From Mustelus asterias (taxonomy: Eukaryota), in the NCBI RefSeq assembly GCF_964213995.1, contig NW_027590119.1, positions 1,364,001 to 1,428,000 on the forward strand: a stretch of DNA of 64,000 nucleotides. Reading direction: 5' to 3'. The translations under genes were made by a program, and so were the position numbers. Below the pieces are notes generated by a model. It saw nothing but the letters and a program-made list of their open reading frames with translations, did no database searches and was not told the DNA's origin. Shown piece after piece: positions 5,374 through 64,000 of the stretch (positions are counted from its first letter, which is position 1; each line of letters opens with the position of its first letter).

Positions 5374-6433
5374 TCAGACCTGGATATGATTAACAGCATC
5401 AATAAGTGTAGAATCCAAACCTTGCAGTCCCTTGTGAACTCGCCGGTGTGTTAGCAGGTGGGATGACTGAATAAATCCCTTTCCACAGACATTACAGGTG
5501 AACGGCCTCTCCCCACTGTGAACTCGCTGGTGGTTCAGAAGATAAGATAAATGAGAAAATCCCTTCCCACAGACAGAGCAGGTAAATGGCCTCTCCCCAC
5601 TGTGAACTCTCTGATGTGTCAGCAGGTTGGATGACTGACTGAATCCCTTCCCACACATGGAGCAGGTGAACGGCCTCTCCCCAGTGTGAACTCGCTGGTG
5701 GTTCAATAGGTTGGATGAAAGAGTGAATCCCTTCCCACACACGGAGAAAGTGAATGGCCTCTCCTCACTGTGAACCTGCTGGTGTGTCAGAAGGTTGGAT
5801 GAATTAATGAATCCCTTCCCACAGTCTGAGCAGGTGAAGGCCTCTCCCCAGTGTGAATTCTCTGGCGGTTCAGTAGGGCAGATGGACGGCTGAATCCCTT
5901 CCCACACACACAGCAGGTGAATGGCCTCTCCCCAGTGTGAGTATATTGGTGCGTCAGCAGATCCTTTTTGTTTTTAAAGCTCTTCGCAGTCGGAACAATT
6001 AAAAAGTTTGTTGTCAGAGTGAACAAGTTGATGTGTCTGCAGGTGGGATGACTGAATGAATCCTTTCCCACACACAGAGCAGGTGAATGGTCTCTCCCGT
6101 GTGAATACGTTGGTGTGTCAGCAGATCTTTTTTGCATTTAAAACTCTTCCCACAGTCAGAACATGTAAACATTCTCTCATCAGTGTGAACAAGTTGGTGT
6201 GTCACAATGTGGGATGAGCGAGTGAATCCCTTCCCACACACAGGGCAGGTGAACGGCCTCTCCCCAGTGTGAACCCGTTGGTGAGTCAGAAGGTTGTATG
6301 AATGGGTGAATCCCTTCCCACAAACGGAGGAGGTGAATGGTCTCTCCCCAGTGTGACTGCACCAATGAACTTCCAGTTGTGATGGGAAACTGAATCCCTT
6401 CCCGCACTCCACACATTTCCACGGTTTCTCCAT
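5374..6433 (-). pseudogene. C2H2 ZNF pseudogene, 12 fingers, paralog of 39017-39997
   Basis: Starts MEKPWKC; three frameshifts (~6095, ~5985, ~5840) and two Cys losses (TSSVC, TFSVC). Confidence 0.9.
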
Positions 6434-7059
6434 GGTGCTGGTGCCCTTGTGTTTCTCCAGGTTGGATGATCAGTTGAAACCTCGTCCACACACACAACAT
6501 ACATGTAGTTTCACCCTGCTGTGAACTGTGTGATGTTTCTTCAGGCTGTGGACTGGTTAAAGCACTTTCCACAGTCAGTTCACTGGAACACTCTCAATCG
6601 GGTGTGTGTTTGTTTCAATGCTTTTCCGGTCACACTGATGTTTAAAATCTTTGCCGACAGACAGAAGAGTCAAACATTTCTCCTCCCACATTCAAAGACC
6701 AATGATCTTCAGCTCTGAATGAACAAAGTGACTTTGCCAGTCATGATGTTCGTTTGAGTTTTCGGTCTACCAATCCTCCACTTCCAATATCCTGTAAAAA
6801 AAAATTTGGAAAAGTCATCACTGTCAGTCCAGAATAGAAATCCTGAACAGACAATTCTAGTTTCTCCGTAACATTTTTTCCTCTCTTGTTCCCCAAAATC
6901 TGTAAATCCCCGTCCCACACACTCTCCCTTCTCCCTGGGCTTAAACCCATCTCACCATCTGCATCATTTCTTTCCTCCACTCCCAGTTTTCTCCCTCCCT
7001 CTCCTCTGTCTGGGTTCAGTTCTCCAGCTCCTGTCTGCAGACTGACAATAAAACCAATG

Positions 7060-19177: not shown

Positions 19178-20262
19178 AAACGTCACACAAGCTTTCGGAG
19201 CCTCAAGCTCCTTCTTCAGGTGAGTGGGAATTCTGTTCACAAACAGGGCATATAAAGACATAGACTCAATTTACAGAATAATGGTTGGAATGTGAATCCT
19301 TGCAGCTAATCAAGTCTTAAAGGTACAAACAATGTGAGTGGAGAGCTTCCACTCTAAACACGTTAAAGAAGCCATCCCCTACGGACACGCCCTCCGTATA
19401 CACAGGATCTGCTTGGGTGAGGAGGATCGCAACAGACACCTCCAGATGCTGAAAGATGCCCTCATAAGAACAGGATATAGCGCTCAACTCATCGATCGAC
19501 AGTTCCGACGCGCCACAGCGAAAAACCGCACCGACCTCCTCAGAAGACAAACACGGGACAAGGTGGACAGAGTACCCTTCGTCGTCCAGTACTTCATCGG
19601 AGCGGAGAAGCTACGGCATCTCCTCTGGAGCCTTCAACATGTCATTGATGAAGATGAACATCTCGCCAAGGCCATCCCCACACCCCCACTTCTTGCCTTC
19701 AAACAACCGCACAACCTCAAACAGACCATTGTCCGCAGCAAACTACCCAGCCTTCAGGAGAACAGTGACCACGACACCACACAACCCTGCCACAGCAACC
19801 TCTGCAACACGTGCCGGATCATCGACACGGATGCCATCATCTCACGTGAGAACACCATCCACCAGGTACACGGTACATACTCTTGCAACTCGGCCAAAGT
19901 TGTCTACCTGATACGCTGCAGGAAAGGATGTCCCGAGGCATGGTACATTGGGGAAACCATGCAGACGCTGTGACAACGGATGAATGAATACCACTCGACA
20001 ATCACCAGGCAAGACTGTTCTCTTCCTGTTGGGGAGCACTTGAGCGGTCACGGGCATTCGGCCTCTGATATTCGGGTAAGCGTTCTCCAAGGCGGCCTTC
20101 ACGCCACACGACGGCGCAGAGTCGCTGAGCAGAAACTGATAGCCAAGTTCTGCACACATGAGGACGGCCTCAACCGGGATATTGGGTTCATGTCACACTA
20201 TCTGTAATCCCCACAACTTGCCTGGACTTGCAGAGTCTCACTGGCTGTCCTGTCTGGACAGT

Positions 20263-24828: not shown

Positions 24829-25978
24829 TCAGACCTGGATATGATTAACAGCATCGATAAGTGTAGAATCCAAACCTTGCAGTCCCTTGTGAACTCGCCG
24901 GTGTGTTAGCAGGTGGGATGACTGAATAAATCCCTTTCCACAGACATTACAGGTGAACGGCCTCTCCCCAGTGTGAACTCGCTGGTGTTTCAGAAGATAA
25001 GATAAATGAGAAAATCCCTTCCCACAAACAGAGCAGGTAAATGGCCTCTCCTCACTGTGAACTCTCTGGTGTGTCAGCAGGTTGGATGACTGACTGAATC
25101 CCTTCCCACACGTGGAGCAGGTGAACGGCCTCTCCCCAGTGTGAACTCGCTGGTGTGTCAGGAGATTGTATGAACGGGTGAATCCCTTCCCACACACGGA
25201 GCAAGTGAATGGCCTCTCCTCACTGTGAACCTGCTGGTGTGTCAGGAGATTGTATGAACGGGTGAATCCCTTCCCACATTCAGAGCAGGTGAATAGTCGA
25301 TCCCCTGTGTGGAGCTGCTGGTGTATCAGAAGGTTGGATGAATTAATGAATCCCTTCCCACAGTCTGAGCAGGTGAAGGGCCTCTCCCCAGTGTGAATTC
25401 TCTGGTGGTTCAGTAGGGCAGATGGGCGGCTGAATCCCTTCCCACACACACACAGCAGGTGAATGGCCTCTCCCCAGTGTGAGCATATTGGTGCGTCAGC
25501 AGATCTTTTTTACTTTTAAAGCTCTTCTCACAGTGGGAACAATTAAAAAGTTTGTTATCAGAGCGAACAAGTTGATGTGTCTGCAAGTGGGATGACTGAA
25601 TGAATTCTTTCCCACACACAGAGAGGTGAACGGTCTCTCCCCAGTGTGAATACGTTGGTGTGTCAGCAGATCCTTTTTGCATTTAAAACTCTTCTCACAG
25701 TCAGAACATGTAAACAGTTTCTCATCAGTGTGAACAAGTTGGTGTGTCACAATGTGGGATAAGCGAGTGAATCCCTTCCCACACACAGGGCAGGTGAACG
25801 GCCTCTCCCCAGTGTGAACCCATTGGTGAATCAGAAGATTGTATGAATGGGTGAATCCCTTCCCACAAACAGAGCAGGTGAACGGTCTCTCCCCAGTGTG
25901 ACTGCGCCGATGAACTTCCAATTGTGATGGGAAACCGAATCCCTTCCCACAATCCACACATTCCCACGGTTTCTCCAT
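24829..25978 (-). pseudogene. C2H2 ZNF, 13 fingers, frameshifted paralog of 39017-39997
   Basis: 1-nt deletion at ~25623 and 2-nt (TG) insertion at ~25445; net +1, so not compensating. Confidence 0.85.
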
Positions 25979-38390: not shown

Positions 38391-39016
38391 GACCCATTGG
38401 TTTTATTGTCAGTCTGCAGACAGGAGCTGGAGAACTGAACCCAGACAGAGGAGAGGGAGGGAGAAAACTGGGAGTGGAGGAAAGAAATGGTGAGATGGGT
38501 TTGGATTTCAGCCCAGGGAGGAGGGAGAGTGTGTGGGACGGAGATTTACAGATTTGGGGGAACAAGAGAGGAAAAAATGTTCCAGACGAACTAGAATTGT
38601 CTGTTCAGAGTTTCTATCGTGTTCTGACAGTGATGACTTTTCTAAACTGTTTTTACAGGATATTGGAAGTGAAAGATTGGCAGACAGAAAATTCAAACCG
38701 GACATCACATCTGACAAAGTCATTCAGTTCCTTCGGAGCTGAATATCATTGGTCTTTGAATATAGAAAGAGAAATATTTGTCTGTTCTGCCTGTGGGCAA
38801 AGAAATTAAACATCAGTGTGACCGGAAAAGCATCGAGACAAACACACACCCGAGTGAGAGTGTTCCAGTGAACTGAATGTGGAAAGAGCTTTAACCAGTT
38901 ACACAGCCTGAAAAAACATCACAGTTCACAGCAGGGTGAAACTACGTGTATGTTGTGTGTGTGGATGAGGCTTGAACTGATCATCCAACCTGGAGAAACA
39001 CAAGGACACCCGCACC

Positions 39017-39997
39017 ATGGAGAAACCGTGGAAATGTGTGGATTGTGGGAAGGGATTCGGTTTCCCATCACAACTGGAAGTTCATCGGCGCAGTCACACT
39101 GGGGAGAGACCGTTCACCTGCTCCGTCTGTGGGAAGGGATTCACCCATTCATACAACCTTCTGACTCACCAACGGGTTCACACTGGGGAGAGGCCGTTCA
39201 CCTGCCCTGTGTGTGGGAAGGGATTCACTCGCTCATCCCACATTGTGACACACCAACTTGTTCACACTGATGAGAGAATGTTTATATGTTCTGACTGTGA
39301 GAAGAGTTTTAAATGCAAAAAGGATCTGCTGACACACCAACGAATTCACACTGGGGAGAGACCGTTCACCTGCTCTGTGTGTGGGAAAGGATTCATTCAG
39401 TCATCCCACTTGCAGACACATCAACTTGTTCACTCTGATAACAAACTTTTTAATTGTTCCCACTGTGAGAAGAGCTTTAAAAATAAAAAGGATCTGCTAA
39501 CGCACCAATATGCTCACACTGGGGAGAGGCCATTCACCTGCTGTGTGTGTGGGAAGGGATTCAGCCGTCCATCTGCCCTATTGAACCACCAGAGAATTCA
39601 CACTGGGGAGAGGCCCTTCACCTGCTCAGACTGTGGGAAGGGATTCACTCGTTCATCCAACTTATTGAATCACCAGCGAGTTCACACTGGGGAGAGGCCG
39701 TTCACCTGCTCTGTGTGTGGGAAGGGATTCAGTCAGTCATCCAACCTGCTGACACACCAGAAAGTTCACAGTGCGGAGAGGCCATTTACCTGCTCTGTCT
39801 GTGGGAAGGGATTTTCTCATTTATCTTATCTTCTGAAACACCAGCGAGTTCACACTGGGGAGAGGCCGTTCACCTGTAATGTCTGTGGAAAGGGATTTAT
39901 TCAGTCATCCCACCTGCTAACACACCAGCGAGTTCACAAACGACTGCAAGGTTTGGATTCTACTCTTAATGATGCTGTTAATCATATCCAGGACTGA
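39017..39997 (+). CDS. Intact C2H2 zinc-finger protein, 11 fingers plus a 19-aa tail, 326 aa
   Basis: ACCATGG start, 11 complete fingers, no frameshift, upstream promoter cassette. Confidence 0.92.
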
Positions 39998-52639: not shown

Positions 52640-53528
52640 TGTTGTGGGTTTAATCTCAGTTGTTTGGATTTAATCTCAGTTGTTTGGATTTAATCTCAGT
52701 TGTTTGGGTTTAAACCCAGTTGTTGTGGGTTTAATCTCAGTTGTTTGGATTTAATCTCAGTTGTTTGGGTTTACTCTCCGTTATTTGGGTTTAATCTCAG
52801 TGGTTTGGGTTTAATATCAGTTGTTTGGATTTAATCTCAGTTGTTGTGGGTTTAATCTCAGTTGTTTGGATTTACTCTCCGTTATTTGGGTTTAATCTCA
52901 GTGGTTTGGGTTTAATATCAGTTGTTTGGATTTAATCTCAGTTGTTTGGATTTAATCTCAGTTGTTTGGATTTAATCTCAGTTGTTTGGGTTTAATCTCA
53001 GTTGTTTGGGTTTAATCTCAGTTGTTTGGGTTTAATCTCAGTTGTTTGGGTTTAATCTCAGTTGTTTGGGTTTAATCTCAGTTGTTTGGGTTTAATCTCA
53101 GTTGTTTGGATTTAATATCAGTTGTTTGGGTTTAATCTCAGTTGTTTGGGTTTAATCTCAGTTGTTTGGGTTTAATCTCAGTTGTTTGGGTTTAATCTCA
53201 GTTGTTTGGGTTTAATATCAGTTGTTTGGGTTTAATATCAGTTGTTTGGGTTTAATATCAGTTGTTTGGATTTAATCTCAGTTGTTTGGGTTTAATATCA
53301 GTTGTTTGGGTTTAATATCAGTTGTTCTGGGTTTAATCTCAGTTGTTTGGGTTTAATATCAGTTGTTTAGGTTTAATCTCAGTTGTTTTGGGTTTAATCT
53401 CAGTTGTTTGGGTTTAATATCAGTTGTTCTGGGTTTAATCTCAGTTGTTCTGGGTTTAATATCAGTTGTTTGGGTTTAATCTCAGTTGTTTGGGTTTAAT
53501 CTCAGTTGTTTGGGTTTAATATCAGTTG
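52640..53528. repeat. 20-bp satellite, ~44 copies (GTTGTTTGGGTTTAATCTCA)
   Basis: Direct inspection. Confidence 0.97.
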
Positions 53529-53869
53529 TTAATATCAGGGATTTGTTCCCAGGAGCAGGCTGAGGGTAAGAGAGTGGGTTTTCTGACTTTAATTAATTAT
53601 TTATTTTTTCAGTTAATTTTGGGTTTAAAATCGGAGGTTTTTTTCAAAACCGGAAGTCGGGCCAGGAGAGGCCTGGGGAAGTTTTTGGAGGGTTTAAAAG
53701 CGCACCAAAGTATACAGCGGGCAGCATCGTAGCGGGCAGCAGAGTGAGTGGGAAGTTGAGTGAGCTGTCAGGGCTTTGGCTCACAGGGCTTGGACGAGCA
53801 GGGGTGAGTTTTTGTTTCCTTACACTCTTATTAACTTTTCACTGTCTTACTTGACATAAAGTGTCCAGT

Positions 53870-54799
53870 ATGAGTGTGAAACCAGTGTGTTGTTCCCAGT
53901 GTAGGATGTGGGAGGTCCTGGAGGCATCTGGCCTCCCGGACATCCACATCTGTGAGGGGTGTGTCGAGCTGCGGTTCCTGAGGGACTGTGTTAGGGAGCT
54001 GGAACTGCAGCTCGAGGATCTTAGGCTGATGAGGGAGAATGAGGAGGTGATAGACAAGAGCTATCATCAGGTGGACACACCAGGGCAACGGGAGGAGGCC
54101 AAGTGGGTGATGGCCAGGAAGGGTAAGGCTAGGGTGGTTGAGAGCACCCCAGTGGATTTGCCTCTGCACAACAAGTACTCCTGCTTGAGTACTGCTGGGG
54201 GGGACAGCCCGCCTGGGGGAAGCAGCAGTGGCCGTGTCTCCGCAGTGGAGTCCAGCCCTGTAACTCAGAGGGCTAAGGAAAAGAGGAGGAAGGCGGTATT
54301 AATCGGGGACTCGATGGTGAAGGGGACAGACAGGCGTTTCTGCGGAGGTAGGCGGGATTCTCGCATGGTGGTCTGCCTCCCTGGGGCCGGGATCCAGGAT
54401 GTCGCTAGTCGCGTCCCGGAAATCCTGAGGTGGGAGGGAGAGGAGCCTGAGGTAGCGGTACATATTGGTACCGCTGATGTGGGTAGGAAGGGAGAAGGGG
54501 TCATGAAAAGGGAGTACAGGGAATTAGGGAGACAGCTGAGAAAGAGGAAAGCAAAGGTAGTAATCTCAGGATTACTACCTGTGCCACGGGAAGGTGAGGG
54601 CAGGAATGGAGTGAGGTGGAAGATGAATGTGTGGCTGAGGGACTGGTGCAGGGGGCAGGGATTCAGGTTCCTGGACCATTGGGACCTCTTTAGGGGCAGG
54701 GGTGATCTGTATACAAAAAACGGGTGGAACTTGAATCACACGGGGACCAATATCCTGGCCGGTAGGTTGGCTAAGGTTACTGGGGAGAATTTAAACTAG
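53870..54799 (+). CDS. CR1 ORF1p: Cys zinc motif, coiled coil and SGNH-esterase-like domain
   Basis: CSQC...CEGC, LRDCVRELELQLEDL, LIGDS, CLPGA, VHIGT. Confidence 0.9.
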   Translation: MSVKPVCCSQCRMWEVLEASGLPDIHICEGCVELRFLRDCVRELELQLEDLRLMRENEEVIDKSYHQVDTPGQREEAKWVMARKGKARVVESTPVDLPLHNKYSCLSTAGGDSPPGGSSSGRVSAVESSPVTQRAKEKRRKAVLIGDSMVKGTDRRFCGGRRDSRMVVCLPGAGIQDVASRVPEILRWEGEEPEVAVHIGTADVGRKGEGVMKREYRELGRQLRKRKAKVVISGLLPVPREGEGRNGVRWKMNVWLRDWCRGQGFRFLDHWDLFRGRGDLYTKNGWNLNHTGTNILAGRLAKVTGENLN

Positions 54800-54804
54800 A
54801 TAGG

Positions 54805-57800
54805 TTGGGGGGAGGGGAGCTAGAAGAGTTGACTAGGATCAAGGAACTAATTGATGGGGTGGAGGATGCAGGGGTAAGGGGAATTACAAAATTAATGGTA
54901 GAGGAGAGGGTGCAAGTGAATGAAGGCGGTAATTTAGATAAGGGAGTAGAGGGAGAGGGTGTTCGTGACTCATCAAAGCGGGTCCAGATAAAAGCTGGAA
55001 TAAGGACACTTTGCCTGAATGCACGAAGCATTCGGAACAAGGTAAATGAGTTGATGGTGCAAATCAGCACGAGTGGGTACGATCTAGTGGCCATTACAGA
55101 AACGTGGCTGAAAGGTGACCAGGACTGGGAGATGAATATCCAGGGGTATCAGGCGTTTAGGAAGAATAGACAGGAAGGAAAAGGTGGTGGGGTCGCGCTA
55201 TTAATAAGAGATAATATCAGGGTAGTACTGAGGGATGACATAGGCTCTGAGGAACAAAACGTGGAATCATTATGGGTAGAGATGAGGAATAGTAGAGGGA
55301 GAAAGACACTAGTAGGTGTGGTATATAGGCCCCCAAATAATAATGTTGAGGTAGGGAGGGCTATAAACAAGCAGATAAGGGATGCGTGTAAAAACGGAAC
55401 GGCAATAATCATGGGGGACTTCAACATGCACATTGACTGGCAGACTCAAGTCGGTAAGGGTGGAATGGAGGAAGAGTTCTTAGAATGCTGTCGGAATAGT
55501 TTCCTTGAACAGCATGTTACGGAACCGACGAGGGAACGAGCTATTTTGGATCTGGTATTGTGTAACGAGGTAGGTAGAATTAAGGATCTTATTGTGAAGG
55601 ACCCTCTTGGGTCTAGTGACCACAATATGGTCGAATTTCTGATTCAGATGGAAGAGGAGAAAGTTTGGTCCCAAACCAGTGTCCTCTGTTTGAACAGAGG
55701 GAAATATGATAGGATGAGGGATGAATTGGCTAAGGTAGACTGGGAGAGCAGGCTGGCAGGTAGGATAGCTGAGGAACAGTGGAGGATTTTTAAGGAGATC
55801 CTTTTCAGTTCTCAGCAAAAATATATTCCAGCAAAAAACAAGGATTGCAAGAAAAGGGAGAACCAGCCGTGGATAACGAAGGAAATAAAGGAGAGTATTA
55901 AAATAAAAACAGCTGCGTACAGAGTGGCCAAAAATAGTGGAGAAACAAGTGATTGGGAAAAATTTAAGAAACAACAAAGAGAGACTAAGAAAGCGATAAA
56001 GAAAGGAAGGATAGACTATGAAGCTAGGCTAGCAATTAATATAAAAAATGATAGTAAAAGTTTTTATAAATATATAAAAAGGAATAGAGTGGCTAGAGTG
56101 AATGTTGGACCCTTGGAGGACGAGAGGGGGGAGTTAATAGTGGGAAATGAGGATATGGCTGAGTCTTTAAATAAGTTTTTTGTGTCGGTCTTCACGGTGG
56201 AGGACACAAATAGTTTGCCAAATATTAATGATAGAGGGTTGGCAGCAGGAGAAATACTTAATACAATTAATGTTACCAGAGAGGCAGTGCTGGGTAGACT
56301 AATGGGACTGAAGGTGGATAAGTCCCCGGGTCCGGATGGAATGCATCCCAGGGTATTGAAAGAAATGTCAGAGGTAATAGTGGATGCGTTAGTGATTATT
56401 TATCAAAACTCGTTGCATTCTGGGGTAGTGCCGGTTGATTGGAAAACGGCTAATGTTACGCCGCTGTTTAAAAAAGGAAGGAGACAAAAGGCGGGTAACT
56501 ATAGGCCGGTCAGCTTAACGTCTGTAGTAGGGAAAATGCTGGAATCCATTATTAAAGAGGAGATAGCAGGGCATCTGGATAGAAATGGTTCGATCAATCA
56601 GACGCAGCATGGATTCATGAGGGGAAAGTCGTGCTTGACGAACATGTTGGATTTTTATGAAGATGTGACTAGGGCGGTTGATGGAGGAGAACCGGTGGAT
56701 GCGGTGTTTTTGGATTTCCAAAAGGCGTTTGATAAGGTGCCCCATAAAAGGCTACTGAAGAAGATTAGGGCACACGGAGTTGGGGGTAGCGTGTTAAAGT
56801 GGATTGGGGACTGGCTATCCGACAGGAAGCAAAGAGTCGGAATAAATGGGTGTTTTTCCGGTTGGAGGAAGGTAACTAGTGGCGTGCCGCAGGGATCGGT
56901 ACTCGGGCTGCAACTATTTACCATTTATATAGATGATCTGGAGGAGGGGACGGAGTGTAGGGTAACGAAGTTTGCAGACGACACAAAGATAAGTGGAAAA
57001 GTGAATCGTGTGGAGGACGGAGAAGATCTGCAGAGAGATTTGGACAGGCTGAGTGAGTGGGCGAGGATATGGCAAATGGAGTATAACGTTGAGAAATGCG
57101 AGGTTATACACTTTGGAGGAAATAATAACAAATGGGATTACTATCTCAATGGAAACAAATTAAAACATGCTACCGTGCAAAGGGACCTGGGGGTCCTTGT
57201 GCATGAGACGCAAAAGCCTAGTCTGCAGGTACAACAGGTGATCAAGAAGGCAAATGGGATGTTGGCCTATATTGCGAAGGGGATAGAATATAAAAGCAGG
57301 AATGTCTTGATGCACCTGTACAGGGCATTGGTGAGGCCGCAGCTGGAATACTGTGTGCAGTATTGGTCCCCTTATATGAGGAAGGATATATTGGCATTGG
57401 AGGGAGTGCAGAGAAGGTTCACCAGGTTGATACCGGAGATGAGGGGTTTGGATTATGAGGAGAGGCTGAGGAGATTGGGTTTGTACTCGTTGGAGTTTAG
57501 AAGGATGAGGGGGGATCTTATGGAGACTTATAAGATAATGCGGGGGCTGGATAGGGTGGAGGCGGAGAGATTCTTTCCACTTAGTAAGGAAGTTAAAACT
57601 AGAGGACACAGCCTCAAAATAAAGGGGGGTCGGTTTAAGACAGAGTTGAGGAGGAACTTCTTCTCCCAGAGGGTGGTGAATCTCTGGAATTCTCTGCCCG
57701 CTGAGGTGGTGGAGGCTACCTCGCTGAATATGTTTAAAGCGCGGATGGATGGATTCCTGATCGGTAAGGGAATTAAGGGTTATGGGGATCAGGCGGGTAA

Positions 57801-57810
57801 GTGGTACTGA
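54805..57810 (+). CDS. CR1 ORF2p: APE endonuclease plus reverse transcriptase (~1000 aa)
   Basis: LNARS, ITETW, GDFN, SDH; KSPGPD, LDFQKAFDKV, KFADDTK; no stops. First in-frame ATG at 54895; true start uncertain. Confidence 0.93.
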   Translation: MGGGELEELTRIKELIDGVEDAGVRGITKLMVEERVQVNEGGNLDKGVEGEGVRDSSKRVQIKAGIRTLCLNARSIRNKVNELMVQISTSGYDLVAITETWLKGDQDWEMNIQGYQAFRKNRQEGKGGGVALLIRDNIRVVLRDDIGSEEQNVESLWVEMRNSRGRKTLVGVVYRPPNNNVEVGRAINKQIRDACKNGTAIIMGDFNMHIDWQTQVGKGGMEEEFLECCRNSFLEQHVTEPTRERAILDLVLCNEVGRIKDLIVKDPLGSSDHNMVEFLIQMEEEKVWSQTSVLCLNRGKYDRMRDELAKVDWESRLAGRIAEEQWRIFKEILFSSQQKYIPAKNKDCKKRENQPWITKEIKESIKIKTAAYRVAKNSGETSDWEKFKKQQRETKKAIKKGRIDYEARLAINIKNDSKSFYKYIKRNRVARVNVGPLEDERGELIVGNEDMAESLNKFFVSVFTVEDTNSLPNINDRGLAAGEILNTINVTREAVLGRLMGLKVDKSPGPDGMHPRVLKEMSEVIVDALVIIYQNSLHSGVVPVDWKTANVTPLFKKGRRQKAGNYRPVSLTSVVGKMLESIIKEEIAGHLDRNGSINQTQHGFMRGKSCLTNMLDFYEDVTRAVDGGEPVDAVFLDFQKAFDKVPHKRLLKKIRAHGVGGSVLKWIGDWLSDRKQRVGINGCFSGWRKVTSGVPQGSVLGLQLFTIYIDDLEEGTECRVTKFADDTKISGKVNRVEDGEDLQRDLDRLSEWARIWQMEYNVEKCEVIHFGGNNNKWDYYLNGNKLKHATVQRDLGVLVHETQKPSLQVQQVIKKANGMLAYIAKGIEYKSRNVLMHLYRALVRPQLEYCVQYWSPYMRKDILALEGVQRRFTRLIPEMRGLDYEERLRRLGLYSLEFRRMRGDLMETYKIMRGLDRVEAERFFPLSKEVKTRGHSLKIKGGRFKTELRRNFFSQRVVNLWNSLPAEVVEATSLNMFKARMDGFLIGKGIKGYGDQAGKWY

Positions 57811-58209
57811 TCCACGTCAGATCAGCCATGATCTTATTGAATGGCGGGGCAGGCTCGAGGGGCTAGATGGCCTACTCCTGCTCCTATTTCTTATGTTCTT
57901 ATGTTCTTTAATATTCTGAGATGTCACTGATTTTCAGGGCTGTTGTGTCCCCTTTTAAACGTACTATCTGTGATTTTTTTTTTTGTTTTATTCAGGAACT
58001 TGTTTATAATACATTTTCCTTCAATCTGAAATTGACATTTGGTACAAACTACAATTCAGTGTCTGAAAGATTCCACTGATTAAGATTTCCAATGAGAAAA
58101 TGCTGACAATTCTTACTGACTTACACATTCTTCACAGTGAAACTTCCACGATCACATTTAATTATCAAGGAACATAAAACAATGCACAGATACTTGTTGG
58201 TACTGAACT

Positions 58210-58719: not shown

Positions 58720-60623
58720 AATGTTCACCATTTTATATTCAAATCTGGGGGGGATAATGTTCACTGTTTTATATTCGGGTCTGGGGGGGATAATGTTCAC
58801 TGTTTTATATTCGGGTCTGGGGGATAATGTTCACTGTTTTATATTCGGGTCTGGGGGGGATAATGTTCACTGTTTTCTATTCGGGTCTGGGGGATAATGT
58901 TCACTGTTTTATATTCGGGTCTGGGGGATAATGTTCACTGTTTTATATTCGGGTCTGGGAGATAATGTTCATTGGTTTAAATTTGGGTCTGGGGGGGATA
59001 ATGTTCACTGTTTTATATTCGGGTCTGGGGGATAATGTTCACTGTTTCATATTCGGGTCTGGGGGTGATAATGTTCACTGTTTTATATTTGAGTCTGGGG
59101 GGGATAATGTTCACTGTTTTATATTCGGGTCTGGGGGAGAATGTTCACTGTTTTATATTTGGGTCTGGGGGATAATGTTCACTTTTATATTCGGGTCTGG
59201 GGGTGATAATGTTCACTGTTTCATATTTGGGTCTGGGGGTGATAATGTTCACTGTTTCATATTCGGGTCTGGGGGGGATAATGTTCACTGTTTTATATTC
59301 GGGTCTGGGGGGGATAATGTTCACTGTTTTATATTCGGGTCTGGGGGGGATAATGTTCACTGTTTTATATTCGGGTCTGGGGGATAATGTTCACTGTTTT
59401 ATATTCGGGTCTGGGGGATAATGTTCACTGTTTTATATTCGGGTCTGGGGGGGATAATGTTCACTGTTTCATATTCGGGTCTGGGGGTGATAATGTTCAC
59501 TGTTTTATATTTGGGTCTGGGGGATAATGTTCACTGTTTTATATTCGGGTCTGGGGGGGATAATGTTCACTGTTTTATATTCGGGTCTGGGGGGGATAAT
59601 GTTCACTGTTTTATATTCGGGTCTGGGGGTGATAATGTTCACTGTTTTATATTCGGGTCTGGGGGATAATGTTCACTGTTTTATATTCGGATCTGGGGGA
59701 TAATGTTCACTGTTTTATATTCGGGTCTGGGGGGGATAATGTTCACTGTTTTATATTCGGGTCTGGGGGATAATGTTCACTGTTTTATATTCGGGTCTGG
59801 GGGATAATGTTCACTGTTTTATATTTGGGTCTGGGAGATAATGTTCACTGTTTTATATTCGGGTCTGGGGAGGATAATGTTCACTGTTTTATATTCGGGT
59901 CTGGGGGATAATGTTCACTGTTTTATATTCGGGTCTGGGGGGGATAATGTTCACTGTTTTATATTCGGGTCTGGGGAGGATAATGTTCACTGTTTTATTT
60001 TCGGGTCTGGGAGATAATGTTCACTGTTTTATATTGGGGTCTGGGGGGGATAATGTTCACTGTTTTATATTCAGGTCTGGGGGATAATGTTCACTGTTTT
60101 ATATTCGGGTCTGGGGGATAATGTTCACTGTTTTATATTCGGGTCTGGGGGGGATAATGTTCACTGTTTTATATTCGGGTCTGGGGGATAATGTTCACTG
60201 TTCTTTATTTGGGTCTGGGGGGGATAATGTTCACTGTTTTATATTCGGTCTGGGGGATAATGTTCACTGTTTTATATTCGGGTCTGGGGGAGTTAATGTT
60301 CACTGTTTTATATTCGGGTCTGGGGGATAATGTTCACTGTTTTATATTCGGGTCTGGGGGGGATAATGTTCACTGTTTTATATTCGGGTCTGGGGGGGAT
60401 AATGTTCACTGTTTTATATTTGGGTCTGGGGGGGATAATGTTCACTGTTTTATATTCGGGTCTGGGGGGATAATGTTCACTGTTTTATATTCGGGTCTGG
60501 GAGATAATGTTCACTGTTTTATATTCGGGTCTGGGGGGGATAATGTTCACTGTTTTATATTCGGGTCTGGGGGGGATAATGTTCACTGTTTTATATTCGG
60601 GTCTGGGAGATAATGTTCACTGT
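58720..60623. repeat. 32-34-bp satellite, ~57 copies (GATAATGTTCACTGTTTTATATTCGGGTCTG5-7)
   Basis: Direct inspection; unit length varies with the G run. Confidence 0.97.
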
Positions 60624-61589: not shown

Positions 61590-64000
61590 ATTCCCAGGTG
61601 CCCCTGCGGTTGTGAACGTGCCCTATTCTTCCGGTGAAGCGGGCAGAGAGGGGAGTGATTTTTGGAGGGCAGAACTGGAAGATAAGCTGAATTTATTTTT
61701 ACTTACTTTTTTCGGAGTTGTTTTTTTCCTGAGAAACAGGAAACCGGAAGTCAGCCGTAGGGAGACCTGGGACGGTTTTTTTTTTGCCCACTAAATTTGA
61801 ACGGGGAGGTAACCCGAGACTCTACACGTGTAGAGTCTCCCACCCTCCCTCCTCCTCTAACCTAAAAAAAAAGACTCTGCGTGAGAGCAGGTGAGCTTTC
61901 TTTTTCTTTTTCTTTTCTCTTTCATTTATTAGTTCGGGAAGTTAGCAGGGATGTCAGTGCAGGCAGTGCAATGTTCCTCCTGTGGGATGTGTGAGGTGAG
62001 GGACACCATTAGTGTCCCAGCTGAGTACACCTGCAGGAAGTGCACCCAATTCCAGCTCCTTGAAGACTGTGTTAGGGATCTGGAGTTGGAACTGGATGAA
62101 CTCAGGATCATTCGGGAGGCAGAGACAGTTATAGATAAAAGCTACAGGGAGGTTCATACTCCTAGGAATGAGGATACTTGGGTGACTGTTAGAAAGGGTA
62201 AGAAGCAGACAGTGCAGCGATCCCCTGTGGCCGTTCCTCTGTATAACAAGTATACCGTTTTGGATCCTGTTGGGGAGGGCGACTTACCAGGGGTAAGCCA
62301 TGGGGTACAGGTCTCTGGCACAGAGTCTGTCCCTGTTGCTCAGAAGGGAAAGGGGGGGAGGAGTAGAGCATTAGTCATTGGGAACTGCATAGTTAGGGGG
62401 ACAGATCGGAGATTCTGTGAGAGCGAGAGGGACTCGCGGCTGGTGTGTTGCCTCCCAGGTGCCAGGGTCTTTGATGTCTCGGATCGTGTTTTCAAGATCC
62501 TTAAGGGGGAAGGGGACCAGCCCCAAGTTGTGGTCCACACAGGCACCAATGACATAGGTAGGAAAAGAGATGGGGATGTAAGGCAGAAATTCAGGGAGTT
62601 AGGGTGGAAGCTTAGAGCGAGAACAAATAGAGTTGTTATCTCTGGTTTGTTACCCGTGCCACGTGCTAGTGAGGAGAGGAATAGGGAGAGAGAGCAGTTG
62701 AACACGTGGCTACAGGAATGGTGCAGGAGGGAAGGATTTAGATACCTGGATAATTGGCGCTCATTCTGGGGTAGGTGGGACCTCTACAAACGGGATGGTC
62801 TTCACCTGGACCAGAGGGGTACTAATATCCTGGGGGGGAAATTTGCTAATGCTCTTCGGGAGGGTTTAAACTAATTCGGCAGGGGGGTGGGAACCTGGAT
62901 TTCTGCTCCAGTGTACAGGAGGATGTGAGTGGTGAGGTGATGAATAAGATTTCAAGGTCGCAGGAGTGTACCGGCAGGCAGGAAGGTGCTTTGAAGTGTG
63001 TCTACTTCAATGCCAGGAGCATCCGGAATAACGTGGGTGAACTTGCAGCATGGGCTGGTACCTGGGACTTCGATGTTGTGGCCATTTCGGGGACATGGAT
63101 AGAGCAGGGACAGGAATGGTTGTTGCAGGTTCCGGGGTTTAGATGTTTCAGTAAGATCAGGGAAGGTGGTAAAAGAGGAGGAGGTGCGGCATTGTTAGTC
63201 AAGGACAGTATTACGGTGGCAGAAAGGATGTTTGATGAGGACTCGTCTACTGAGGTAGTATGGGCTGAGGTTAGAAACAGGAAAGGAGAGGTCACCCTGA
63301 TGGGAGTTTTCTATAGGTCTCCGAAAAGTTCCAGAGATGTAGAGGAAAAGATTGCAAAGATGATTCTGGATAGGAGCGAAAGTAACAGGGCAGTTGTTAT
63401 GGGGGACTTTAACTTTACAAATATTGACTGGAAATGCTATAGTTCGAGTACTTTAGATGGGTCAGTTTTTGTCCAATGTGTGCAGGAGGGTTTGCTGACA
63501 CAGTATGTAGATAGACCAACAAGAGGCGAGGCCACATTGGATTTGGTACTGGGTAATGAACCAGGCCAGGTGTTAGATTTGGAGGTAGGTGAACACTTTG
63601 GTGATAGTGACCACAATTCGGTTACGTTTACTTTAGCAATGGAAAGGGATAGGTATACACCGCAGGGCAAGTATTATAGCTGGGGGAAAGGAAATTATGA
63701 TGCGATTAGGCGAGATTTAGGATGCACAGGATGGGGAAGAAATCTGTAGGGGATGGGCACAATTGAAATGTGGAGCTTGTTCAATGAACAGCTACTGCGT
63801 GTCCTTGATAAGTATGTACCTGTCAGGCAAGGAGGTAGTGGTCGAGCGGGGGAACCGTGGTTTACTAAAGAAGTTGAATCTCTTGTGAAGAGGAAGAAGG
63901 AGACTTATGTAAAGATGAGACGTGAAGGCTCAGTTAGGGCGCTTGAGAGTTACAAGTTCGCCAGGAAGGAGCTGAAGAGAGAGCTAAGAAGAGCCAGGAG
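61590..64000 (+). mobile_element. Second CR1 family, 5' half (runs off the window)
   Basis: 5' UTR with CCGGAAGT; ORF1 61951-62874 (GTND, DGLHL; GDS decayed to GNC); ORF2 APE domain with a premature TAG at 63747. 5' boundary approximate. Confidence 0.9.

Follow-up and report, generated by a model that had tools for sequence, protein, structure and literature searches.

A conserved U_UUA_AAC heptamer at the ORF1 stop codon of two CR1-type LINEs of Mustelus asterias suggests translation of ORF2 by -1 ribosomal frameshifting

Two long interspersed nuclear elements (LINEs), designated A and B, were analysed in a 64,000-nucleotide (nt) stretch of Mustelus asterias DNA (NCBI RefSeq assembly GCF_964213995.1, contig NW_027590119.1, positions 1,364,001 to 1,428,000; hereafter the window). 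Unless stated otherwise, coordinates follow window numbering and refer to the + strand, on which both elements lie with their 5' halves retained. In each element the open reading frame that comes first (ORF1) ends in the slippery heptamer U_UUA_AAC directly before the stop codon, and the second (ORF2) is open in the -1 frame. Judged from these sequences and their relatives, -1 programmed ribosomal frameshifting on the heptamer would very probably generate an ORF1-ORF2 fusion, with a predicted length in element A of 1313 residues (309 + 1004).

According to the proposed mechanism, the majority of ribosomes would translate ORF1 and then terminate. A fraction would instead slip one base back to UUU/AAA while UUA occupies the P site and AAC the A site, and would continue across a linker, short and variable, to reach the endonuclease and reverse transcriptase (RT); the product would be a gag-pol-like fusion in fixed ratio to the ORF1 protein. 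A domain search found no protease domain in the predicted fusion. In passages of a 2016 review (PMC5009743), U_UUA_AAC and G_GGA_AAC are among the heptamers listed as shifting most readily on mammalian ribosomes. A preliminary description of this DNA, made from the letters alone, had suggested such a fusion; the synonymous-codon and phase tests reported below support it, the frameshift itself being inferred.

Results

Slippery heptamer at the ORF1 stop codons

The combination TTTAAAC + TAR occurred twice in the window (0.18 expected), a count reached in 0/100 shuffles, and both sites were the ends of esterase ORF1s with an endonuclease/RT frame open at -1. The heptamer alone was common (24 occurrences, 7.0 expected); chance was thus ruled out for heptamer plus stop and not for the heptamer by itself. 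U_UUA_AAC had been described at both ORF1 ends, with ORF2 open from it in the -1 frame, and each point held: the sites are at 54790-54799 (with TAG) and 62865-62874 (with TAA), and in A the open -1 frame spans 54775-57810, whereas in B it runs from 62850 to a premature stop (63747-63749).

From each element's own codon usage, the joint chance of T-TTA-AAC was about 0.009 (A) and 0.018 (B), and none of the eight internal Leu-Asn pairs was encoded in this way. Between the two ORF1s, 25/54 four-fold third positions agreed; on this comparison the junction is better preserved than ordinary silent sites, though the latter are not fully randomised. Among the 40 of 284 variant rows listed (four runs), none fell at 54790-54799.

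Further slippery sequences were seen near both junctions. Element B has overlapping in-phase sites, G_GGU_UUA and U_UUA_AAC, at 62862-62871, and ten distinct proteins ending in Gly-Gly-Leu-Asn-like residues could carry the same tandem arrangement. Element A has a second in-phase heptamer, A_AAA_AAC, at 54715-54721, 75 nt upstream of the junction and absent from B.

Identity of the elements

On the basis of domain content and a quick esterase tree, A and B are CR1-type LINEs with an esterase ORF1. Both ORF1s encode a GDSL/SGNH esterase (in A, Lipase_GDSL_2, E 4.6e-10), share 158/307 identical residues and have their nearest named relatives in rays and sharks; both -1 frames encode an endonuclease, of the APE type and followed by RT in A, so that both CR1-clade features, esterase-type ORF1 and APE-RT ORF2, are present. 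The best solved-structure match of the ORF1 profile was 4C1B (E 4.5e-35), which we take to be the ZfL2-1 esterase. The quick tree was built from 104 rows with the tails excluded. Shark and ray proteins grouped with amniote proteins, apart from the 4C1B-like clade, and end types clustered, with neither Leu-Asn nor Gln-Gly-Asn ends forming a single clade. The 4C1B-like clade comprised eight members (support 100), none with a Leu-Asn end, which means that the fold does not need Leu-Asn. A third ORF1 was not found in the window by local tblastn.

Junctions in related elements

For the detection of related junctions, DNA of public collections was scanned with a pattern that combined the DG(L/V)HL esterase motif with a Gly and with Leu/Phe-Asn-stop, spaced as in the vertebrate proteins; neither the codons for Leu and Asn nor the base ahead of them were fixed. 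The scan gave at least 72 metagenome loci, 38 genome loci and 0 viral loci, of which 110 were listed. Eleven were called LINE-like, seven by a tblastn match to ORF2 and four by the ORF1 tail. T-TTA-AAC-TAR was present in 11/11 LINE-like loci and in 0/99 of the others among the matches listed. The Leu-Asn codons therefore did not vary synonymously, and the heptamer appears to be conserved at the nucleotide level beyond what the protein needs. Among the 54 distinct non-LINE Leu-Asn-stop ends listed, TTA was used in 11, AAC in 21 and a preceding T in 16, and the heptamer in 0.

To avoid circularity in the LINE-like call, the junction was masked and the 110 listed loci were ranked by similarity to the element proteins: the top 11 were the same 11 LINE-like loci. 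The lowest of these (L108) preceded rank 12 by 0.4 bit, with 71% identity over 34 residues compared to 29%. Because seven of the 11 loci came from one assembly and amounted to two junction types, the set was counted, A and B included, as about eight lineages, which share ancestry and are not independent origins. A ninth lineage, with a loose end reading TTTAAAC-TGA, was recovered in runs X6 and X17. The stop codon thus varies (TAG, TAA, TGA) while the heptamer is constant. A separate search for relatives in viral contigs and metagenomes returned no related loci.

L108 is a 257-nt contig within a bacterial genome record, with a vertebrate-like CR1 junction and 71% identity to a turtle-labelled protein; it is probably host DNA within a bacterial assembly.

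C-termini of ORF1 proteins

Of 179 ORF1 homologs, 120 ended near the profile end, giving 105 distinct C-termini. A strict X_XXY_YYZ heptamer before the stop could be encoded in 67/105 of these, compared to 637/15143 internal triplets (4.2%). The residue preceding Leu-Asn was unable to end in U in 1/58 cases, compared to 68/406 at positions -4 to -10 (binomial 3e-4, the rows being related). Named proteins with a Leu-Asn end came from rays, a shark, a sawshark, sturgeon, mormyrid, turtles, snake, monitor lizard and swallow, and in the vertebrate proteins Leu-Asn-stop stood at a fixed 26-residue spacing from the DGLHL esterase motif. For ends in Gly-Asn, Gln preceded in 9/9, which is compatible with G_GGA_AAC; a pattern scan of viral contigs for a G_GGA_AAC junction gave 0 matches. 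A weak search for longer, fused forms of ORF1 scored 8000 candidates and gave a single host chimera, which was unrelated.

Some individual proteins had unusual ends. The C-terminus of P0005 (Glu-Asn-Leu-Asn-Leu-Asn-Gly) resembles the predicted transframe reading; the simplest explanation is a one-base insertion in that copy, or the end of a contig. Four distant homologs (P0086, P0118, P0127, P0142) end in Phe-Phe-X-stop and could mark another U-run shift site, and some unnamed distant homologs could be Penelope-like.

Reading frame and start codons

Phase and start codons were assessed in 13 junctions (A, B and the 11 LINE-like loci). The endonuclease start was visible in nine, and the endonuclease lay in the -1 frame in eight of these, so the phase is not random; in the ninth, L060, it lay in the +1 frame. 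The -1 frame was unbroken from heptamer to endonuclease in L002, L005 and L062, with no ATG before the first conserved Asn motif, and was likewise open in A and B. L018, L025 and L038 are in phase and have a stop in the linker. These stops and the phase shift of L060 are read as decay. At -1 codon 16, L018 and L025 have TGA where four sister copies have TGC; the two may belong to one dead subfamily, or the change may have recurred.

Upstream of the heptamer, the -1 frame was open for 1-31 codons and free of ATG in 13/13 junctions. An AUG overlapping the ORF1 stop was found in 0/13, with a nearby AUG in L056 and L059 only, and no AUG is shared between the junctions. The first in-frame ATG is at codon index 35 in A, 25 in B, 9 in L108 and 4 in L056 and L059 (2 nt past the stop); in the L056/L059 family, TTG or TTT replaces this ATG in four of six copies, which are sisters. 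The linker of A contains one in-frame ATG, at 54895, preceded by out-of-frame ATGs at 54854 and 54866, and one out-of-frame ATG likewise precedes the in-frame one in B. The preliminary description was right to place in-frame ATGs at 54895 and 62940. It also named reinitiation there as the alternative; their positions are not shared, and six of the eight in-phase junctions (L002, L005, L062, L018, L025, L038) have no ATG before the endonuclease.

Candidate stimulatory sequence

Canonical -1 frameshift sites have a 3' stimulatory structure about 5-9 nt downstream of the heptamer. A run of at least five G was found at exactly +11 nt in 6/13 junctions (A, B, L005, L024, L025, L056), and the G run of L108 is at +9. 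At the place of the G run, the purine tract is interrupted in four sister copies of L025, and L002 and L062 have none. Among 20-nt G-run windows, the tract ranked in the top 0.1% (A) and 0.7% (B). Only in A and L024 (2/13) was a two-tier quadruplex predicted as the minimum. In L002, a hairpin starts about 8 nt downstream (z -2.69, 1/200 shuffles), and L062 has a weak hairpin that falls short of significance (z -0.59). The G tract of B (62877-62898) can pair with its own C-rich leader (61821-61870) at -29.5 kcal/mol (rank 4 of 2078 windows); a long-range partner common to A and B was not found, A having no leader counterpart.

The fixed position of the G run suggests that it is functional, and the G tract (in vertebrate-like lineages) or a hairpin (in L002 and perhaps L062) may act as the 3' stimulator. 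The G-rich tracts of the preliminary description were recovered at 54803-54817 and 62878-62891; they are candidate stimulators, and L002 and L062 have a hairpin-like sequence instead. Natural stimulation of frameshifting by a G-quadruplex was not known at the time of the 2016 review, as far as its relevant passages state (PMC5009743).

Alternative explanations

Several observations weigh against frameshifting as the explanation. Among the LINE-like loci, 7/11 derive from one assembly, and the scan pattern demanded Leu/Phe-Asn-stop, so that elements with other ORF1 ends were invisible to it. The strict heptamer does not fit 38/105 C-termini, and the Gln-Gly-Asn group is known at the protein level. 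L018 and L025 share the TGA at -1 codon 16, the stop of L038 comes later, and in L060 the endonuclease is in +1. In-frame ATGs precede the endonuclease in A, B, L108, L056 and L059. The 80 nt past the heptamer fold no better than shuffles (z 0.72 in A, 0.27 in B), a conserved RNA fold 3' of the heptamer was not found, and Rfam gave no match. Finally, in 9/12 usable ORF2 homologs the called start lies no later than the first strand of the endonuclease, at scattered distances (of 13 homologs, P0216 was left out as a chimeric model, the 12 used had an endonuclease-side N-terminus, and starts were judged by the author's reading). Since upstream start candidates are common among these homologs, reinitiation stays alive as an explanation, though gene callers must choose some start.

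In termination-reinitiation of the L1/SART1 style, ribosomes would begin again close by, at an AUG or a non-AUG codon, and make a separate ORF2 protein; the heptamer would then be a relic, or a signal for pausing or reinitiation. In both L1 and SART1, the translation of ORF2 depends on that of ORF1 (passages of PMC2881922, PMC3708506), and L1 initiation is said to be AUG-independent (a passage of PMC5009743), so a missing AUG is not decisive. The in-frame ATGs in 5/13 junctions, two of them 2 nt past the stop, and the many upstream called starts would also suit such a restart, yet overlapping stop-start codons occur in 0/13 junctions, the first in-frame ATG is at scattered codon indices (4, 4, 9, 25, 35) or lacking before the endonuclease, out-of-frame ATGs come before it in A and B, and four of six L056/L059 sisters have TTG or TTT in its place. 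Reinitiation, moreover, leaves the exact X_XXY_YYZ form and the fixed -1 phase unexplained, and it is considered unlikely.

A constraint at the protein level is highly improbable: here the terminal Leu-Asn of ORF1 and the overlapping Phe-Lys-Leu of ORF2 would together fix the DNA without slippage. The constant 26-residue distance of Leu-Asn-stop from DGLHL in vertebrate proteins fits such dual coding, as does the presence of FKL in the -1 frame in 13/13 junctions and in three frameshifted protein records. Dual coding would, however, permit AAT, which reads TTA (Leu) in the -1 frame, but 13/13 junctions have AAC; upstream of the heptamer ORF2 lacks an ATG, the well-supported clade of eight 4C1B-like esterases ends without Leu-Asn, and the Gln-Gly-Asn group alters the residues and retains the heptamer form. 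That ORF2 is expressed from a spliced or separately started RNA, with the junction acting as a signal for splicing or transcription and the G run as a splicing enhancer, has only a minute probability. GTGAG followed by a pyrimidine run in both leaders (53804, 61891) does resemble a splice donor, but the would-be acceptor AG exists in TAG lineages only and is missing from TAA and TGA lineages, no pyrimidine tract lies ahead of the junction, and several ORF2s have no ATG from which a separate RNA could be translated. A leader-to-ORF2 joint was found in 0/8 listed joints; these were contigs whose RNA status is a guess, and the result was not counted as evidence.

Coordinates and other features of the window

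The features of A and B are listed in Table 1. LINEs of the CR1 clade end in short tandem repeats instead of poly-A; at the 3' end of A, about two TTCTTATG-like units were seen by eye near 57890-57910. A (53650-53657) and B (61744-61751), with ORF1s 51% identical, both seem to start at CCGGAAGT; we take this motif to be ETS-like and a candidate internal promoter common to the two elements. In both leaders (A 53804-53869, B 61891-61950), GTGAG, a pyrimidine run and an AG just before the ORF1 ATG were seen, so that these segments resemble a small 5' UTR (untranslated region) intron of about 45-65 nt.

Table 1. Positions of the parts of elements A and B in the window
Feature	Positions	Strand	Remarks
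A, 5' leader	53650..53869	+	begins at CCGGAAGT motif common to B; 5' end inferred from sequence
A, ORF1 (309 aa)	53870..54799	+	N-terminal Cys motif, C-terminal SGNH/GDSL esterase
A, slippery heptamer U_UUA_AAC	54790..54796	+	in ORF1 phase, final two ORF1 codons
A, ORF1 stop TAG	54797..54799	+	adjoins heptamer directly
A, G-rich tract, candidate stimulator	54803..54817	+	G6 run begins 11 nt past heptamer
A, -1 frame linker, slip site to endonuclease (~68 codons)	54796..54999	+	
A, ORF2 endonuclease and reverse transcriptase	55000..57810	+	unbroken; Exo_endo_phos, RVT_1
A, 3' UTR	57811..57910	+	short TTCTTATG-like repeats at end; from sequence, boundary approximate
B, ORF1, esterase type (307 aa)	61951..62874	+	
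B, heptamer U_UUA_AAC and TAA	62865..62874	+	overlapped by upstream in-phase G_GGU_UUA (62862)
B, G-rich tract	62878..62891	+	G6 run begins 11 nt past heptamer
B, -1 frame, linker and endonuclease	62871..63749	+	premature stop at end; element continues beyond window

By eye, duplicated C2H2 zinc-finger reading frames (e.g. 5374-6469, 24829-26014, 33657-35123, 38981-39997) form a cluster in the window, with interleaved LINE fragments. Short-unit tandem arrays occur at about 53300-53540, just upstream of A, and at 58900-60600, between A and B. Two similar reading frames (699-1373 and 19338-19973) end in a Cys motif and 'WYIGET'; they resemble what we take to be the GIY-YIG end of Penelope-like elements.

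Discussion

If the frameshift is real, CR1 'ORF2' annotations beginning at a downstream Met are wrong, the RT bears the esterase and RNA-binding domains of ORF1 in cis, heptamer and phase should define intact CR1 copies, and CR1 joins the frameshift-dependent translation known from viruses. The junction is a directly testable 40-nt cassette, and its stimulator is seemingly not a pseudoknot. A wider proposal, which we regard as rather doubtful, is that an esterase-endonuclease-RT fusion has been made by -1 frameshifting in the main non-mammalian vertebrate LINE since before the split of sharks and bony vertebrates, with the G tract as a stem-loop-free stimulator (a two-tier G-quadruplex or a protein-binding site) and with distant relatives having swapped to G_GGA_AAC.

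The translation of LINE ORF2 is described as unclear in passages of two reviews (PMC2881922, PMC3708506), and CR1 is named as the dominant retrotransposon of most vertebrates in the abstract of a 2026 survey (PMC13343379). Frameshifting would be a recoding mechanism that is already known, here in a very abundant family of elements; no published report of it for CR1 was found, and an earlier mention in Haas 1997, Kajikawa 1997 or Kapitonov and Jurka 2003 is possible. The main text of the CR1 survey makes no mention of frameshift, overlap, translation or start codon, and its supplements could bear on the point (PMC13343379); the relevant passages of the 2016 review do not mention CR1 (PMC5009743).

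Canonical vertebrate CR1 shares the esterase ORF1 and APE-RT ORF2 of A and B, as described in the survey's main text (PMC13343379). The bicistronic LINEs L1, SART1 and ZfL2-1 are alike in having one RNA with two ORFs, ORF2 being made at a lower level and coupled to ORF1 translation; L1 and SART1 make it by reinitiation, according to the passages concerned (PMC2881922, PMC3708506). The ZfL2-1-like esterases, which we would assign to L2, differ in lacking a heptamer-compatible end. In Penelope-like elements, a frameshift with a pseudoknot can set ORF1 apart (a passage of PMC8557442) and some carry esterases (a passage of PMC5408684), but these elements have a GIY-YIG endonuclease and another RT class, unlike A and B with their APE endonuclease.

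The -1 sites of retroviruses, long terminal repeat (LTR) elements and coronaviruses, among them the U_UUA_AAC of IBV (infectious bronchitis virus), resemble those of A and B in heptamer, phase and passage from a structural ORF to a polymerase ORF (passages of PMC5009743); they differ in that a pseudoknot or stem-loop was not detected in A and B, which have the G run at +11 instead. The TRE5-A and TRE3-A elements of Dictyostelium belong to another clade and host and have an unrelated ORF1, and passages of the review that covers them contain no slippery sequence or experiment (PMC5911963). Like A and B, they are endonuclease-type non-LTR elements with two ORFs, the second with APE and RT, and according to a legend in the review a -1 frameshift is needed for ORF2 in both (PMC5911963).

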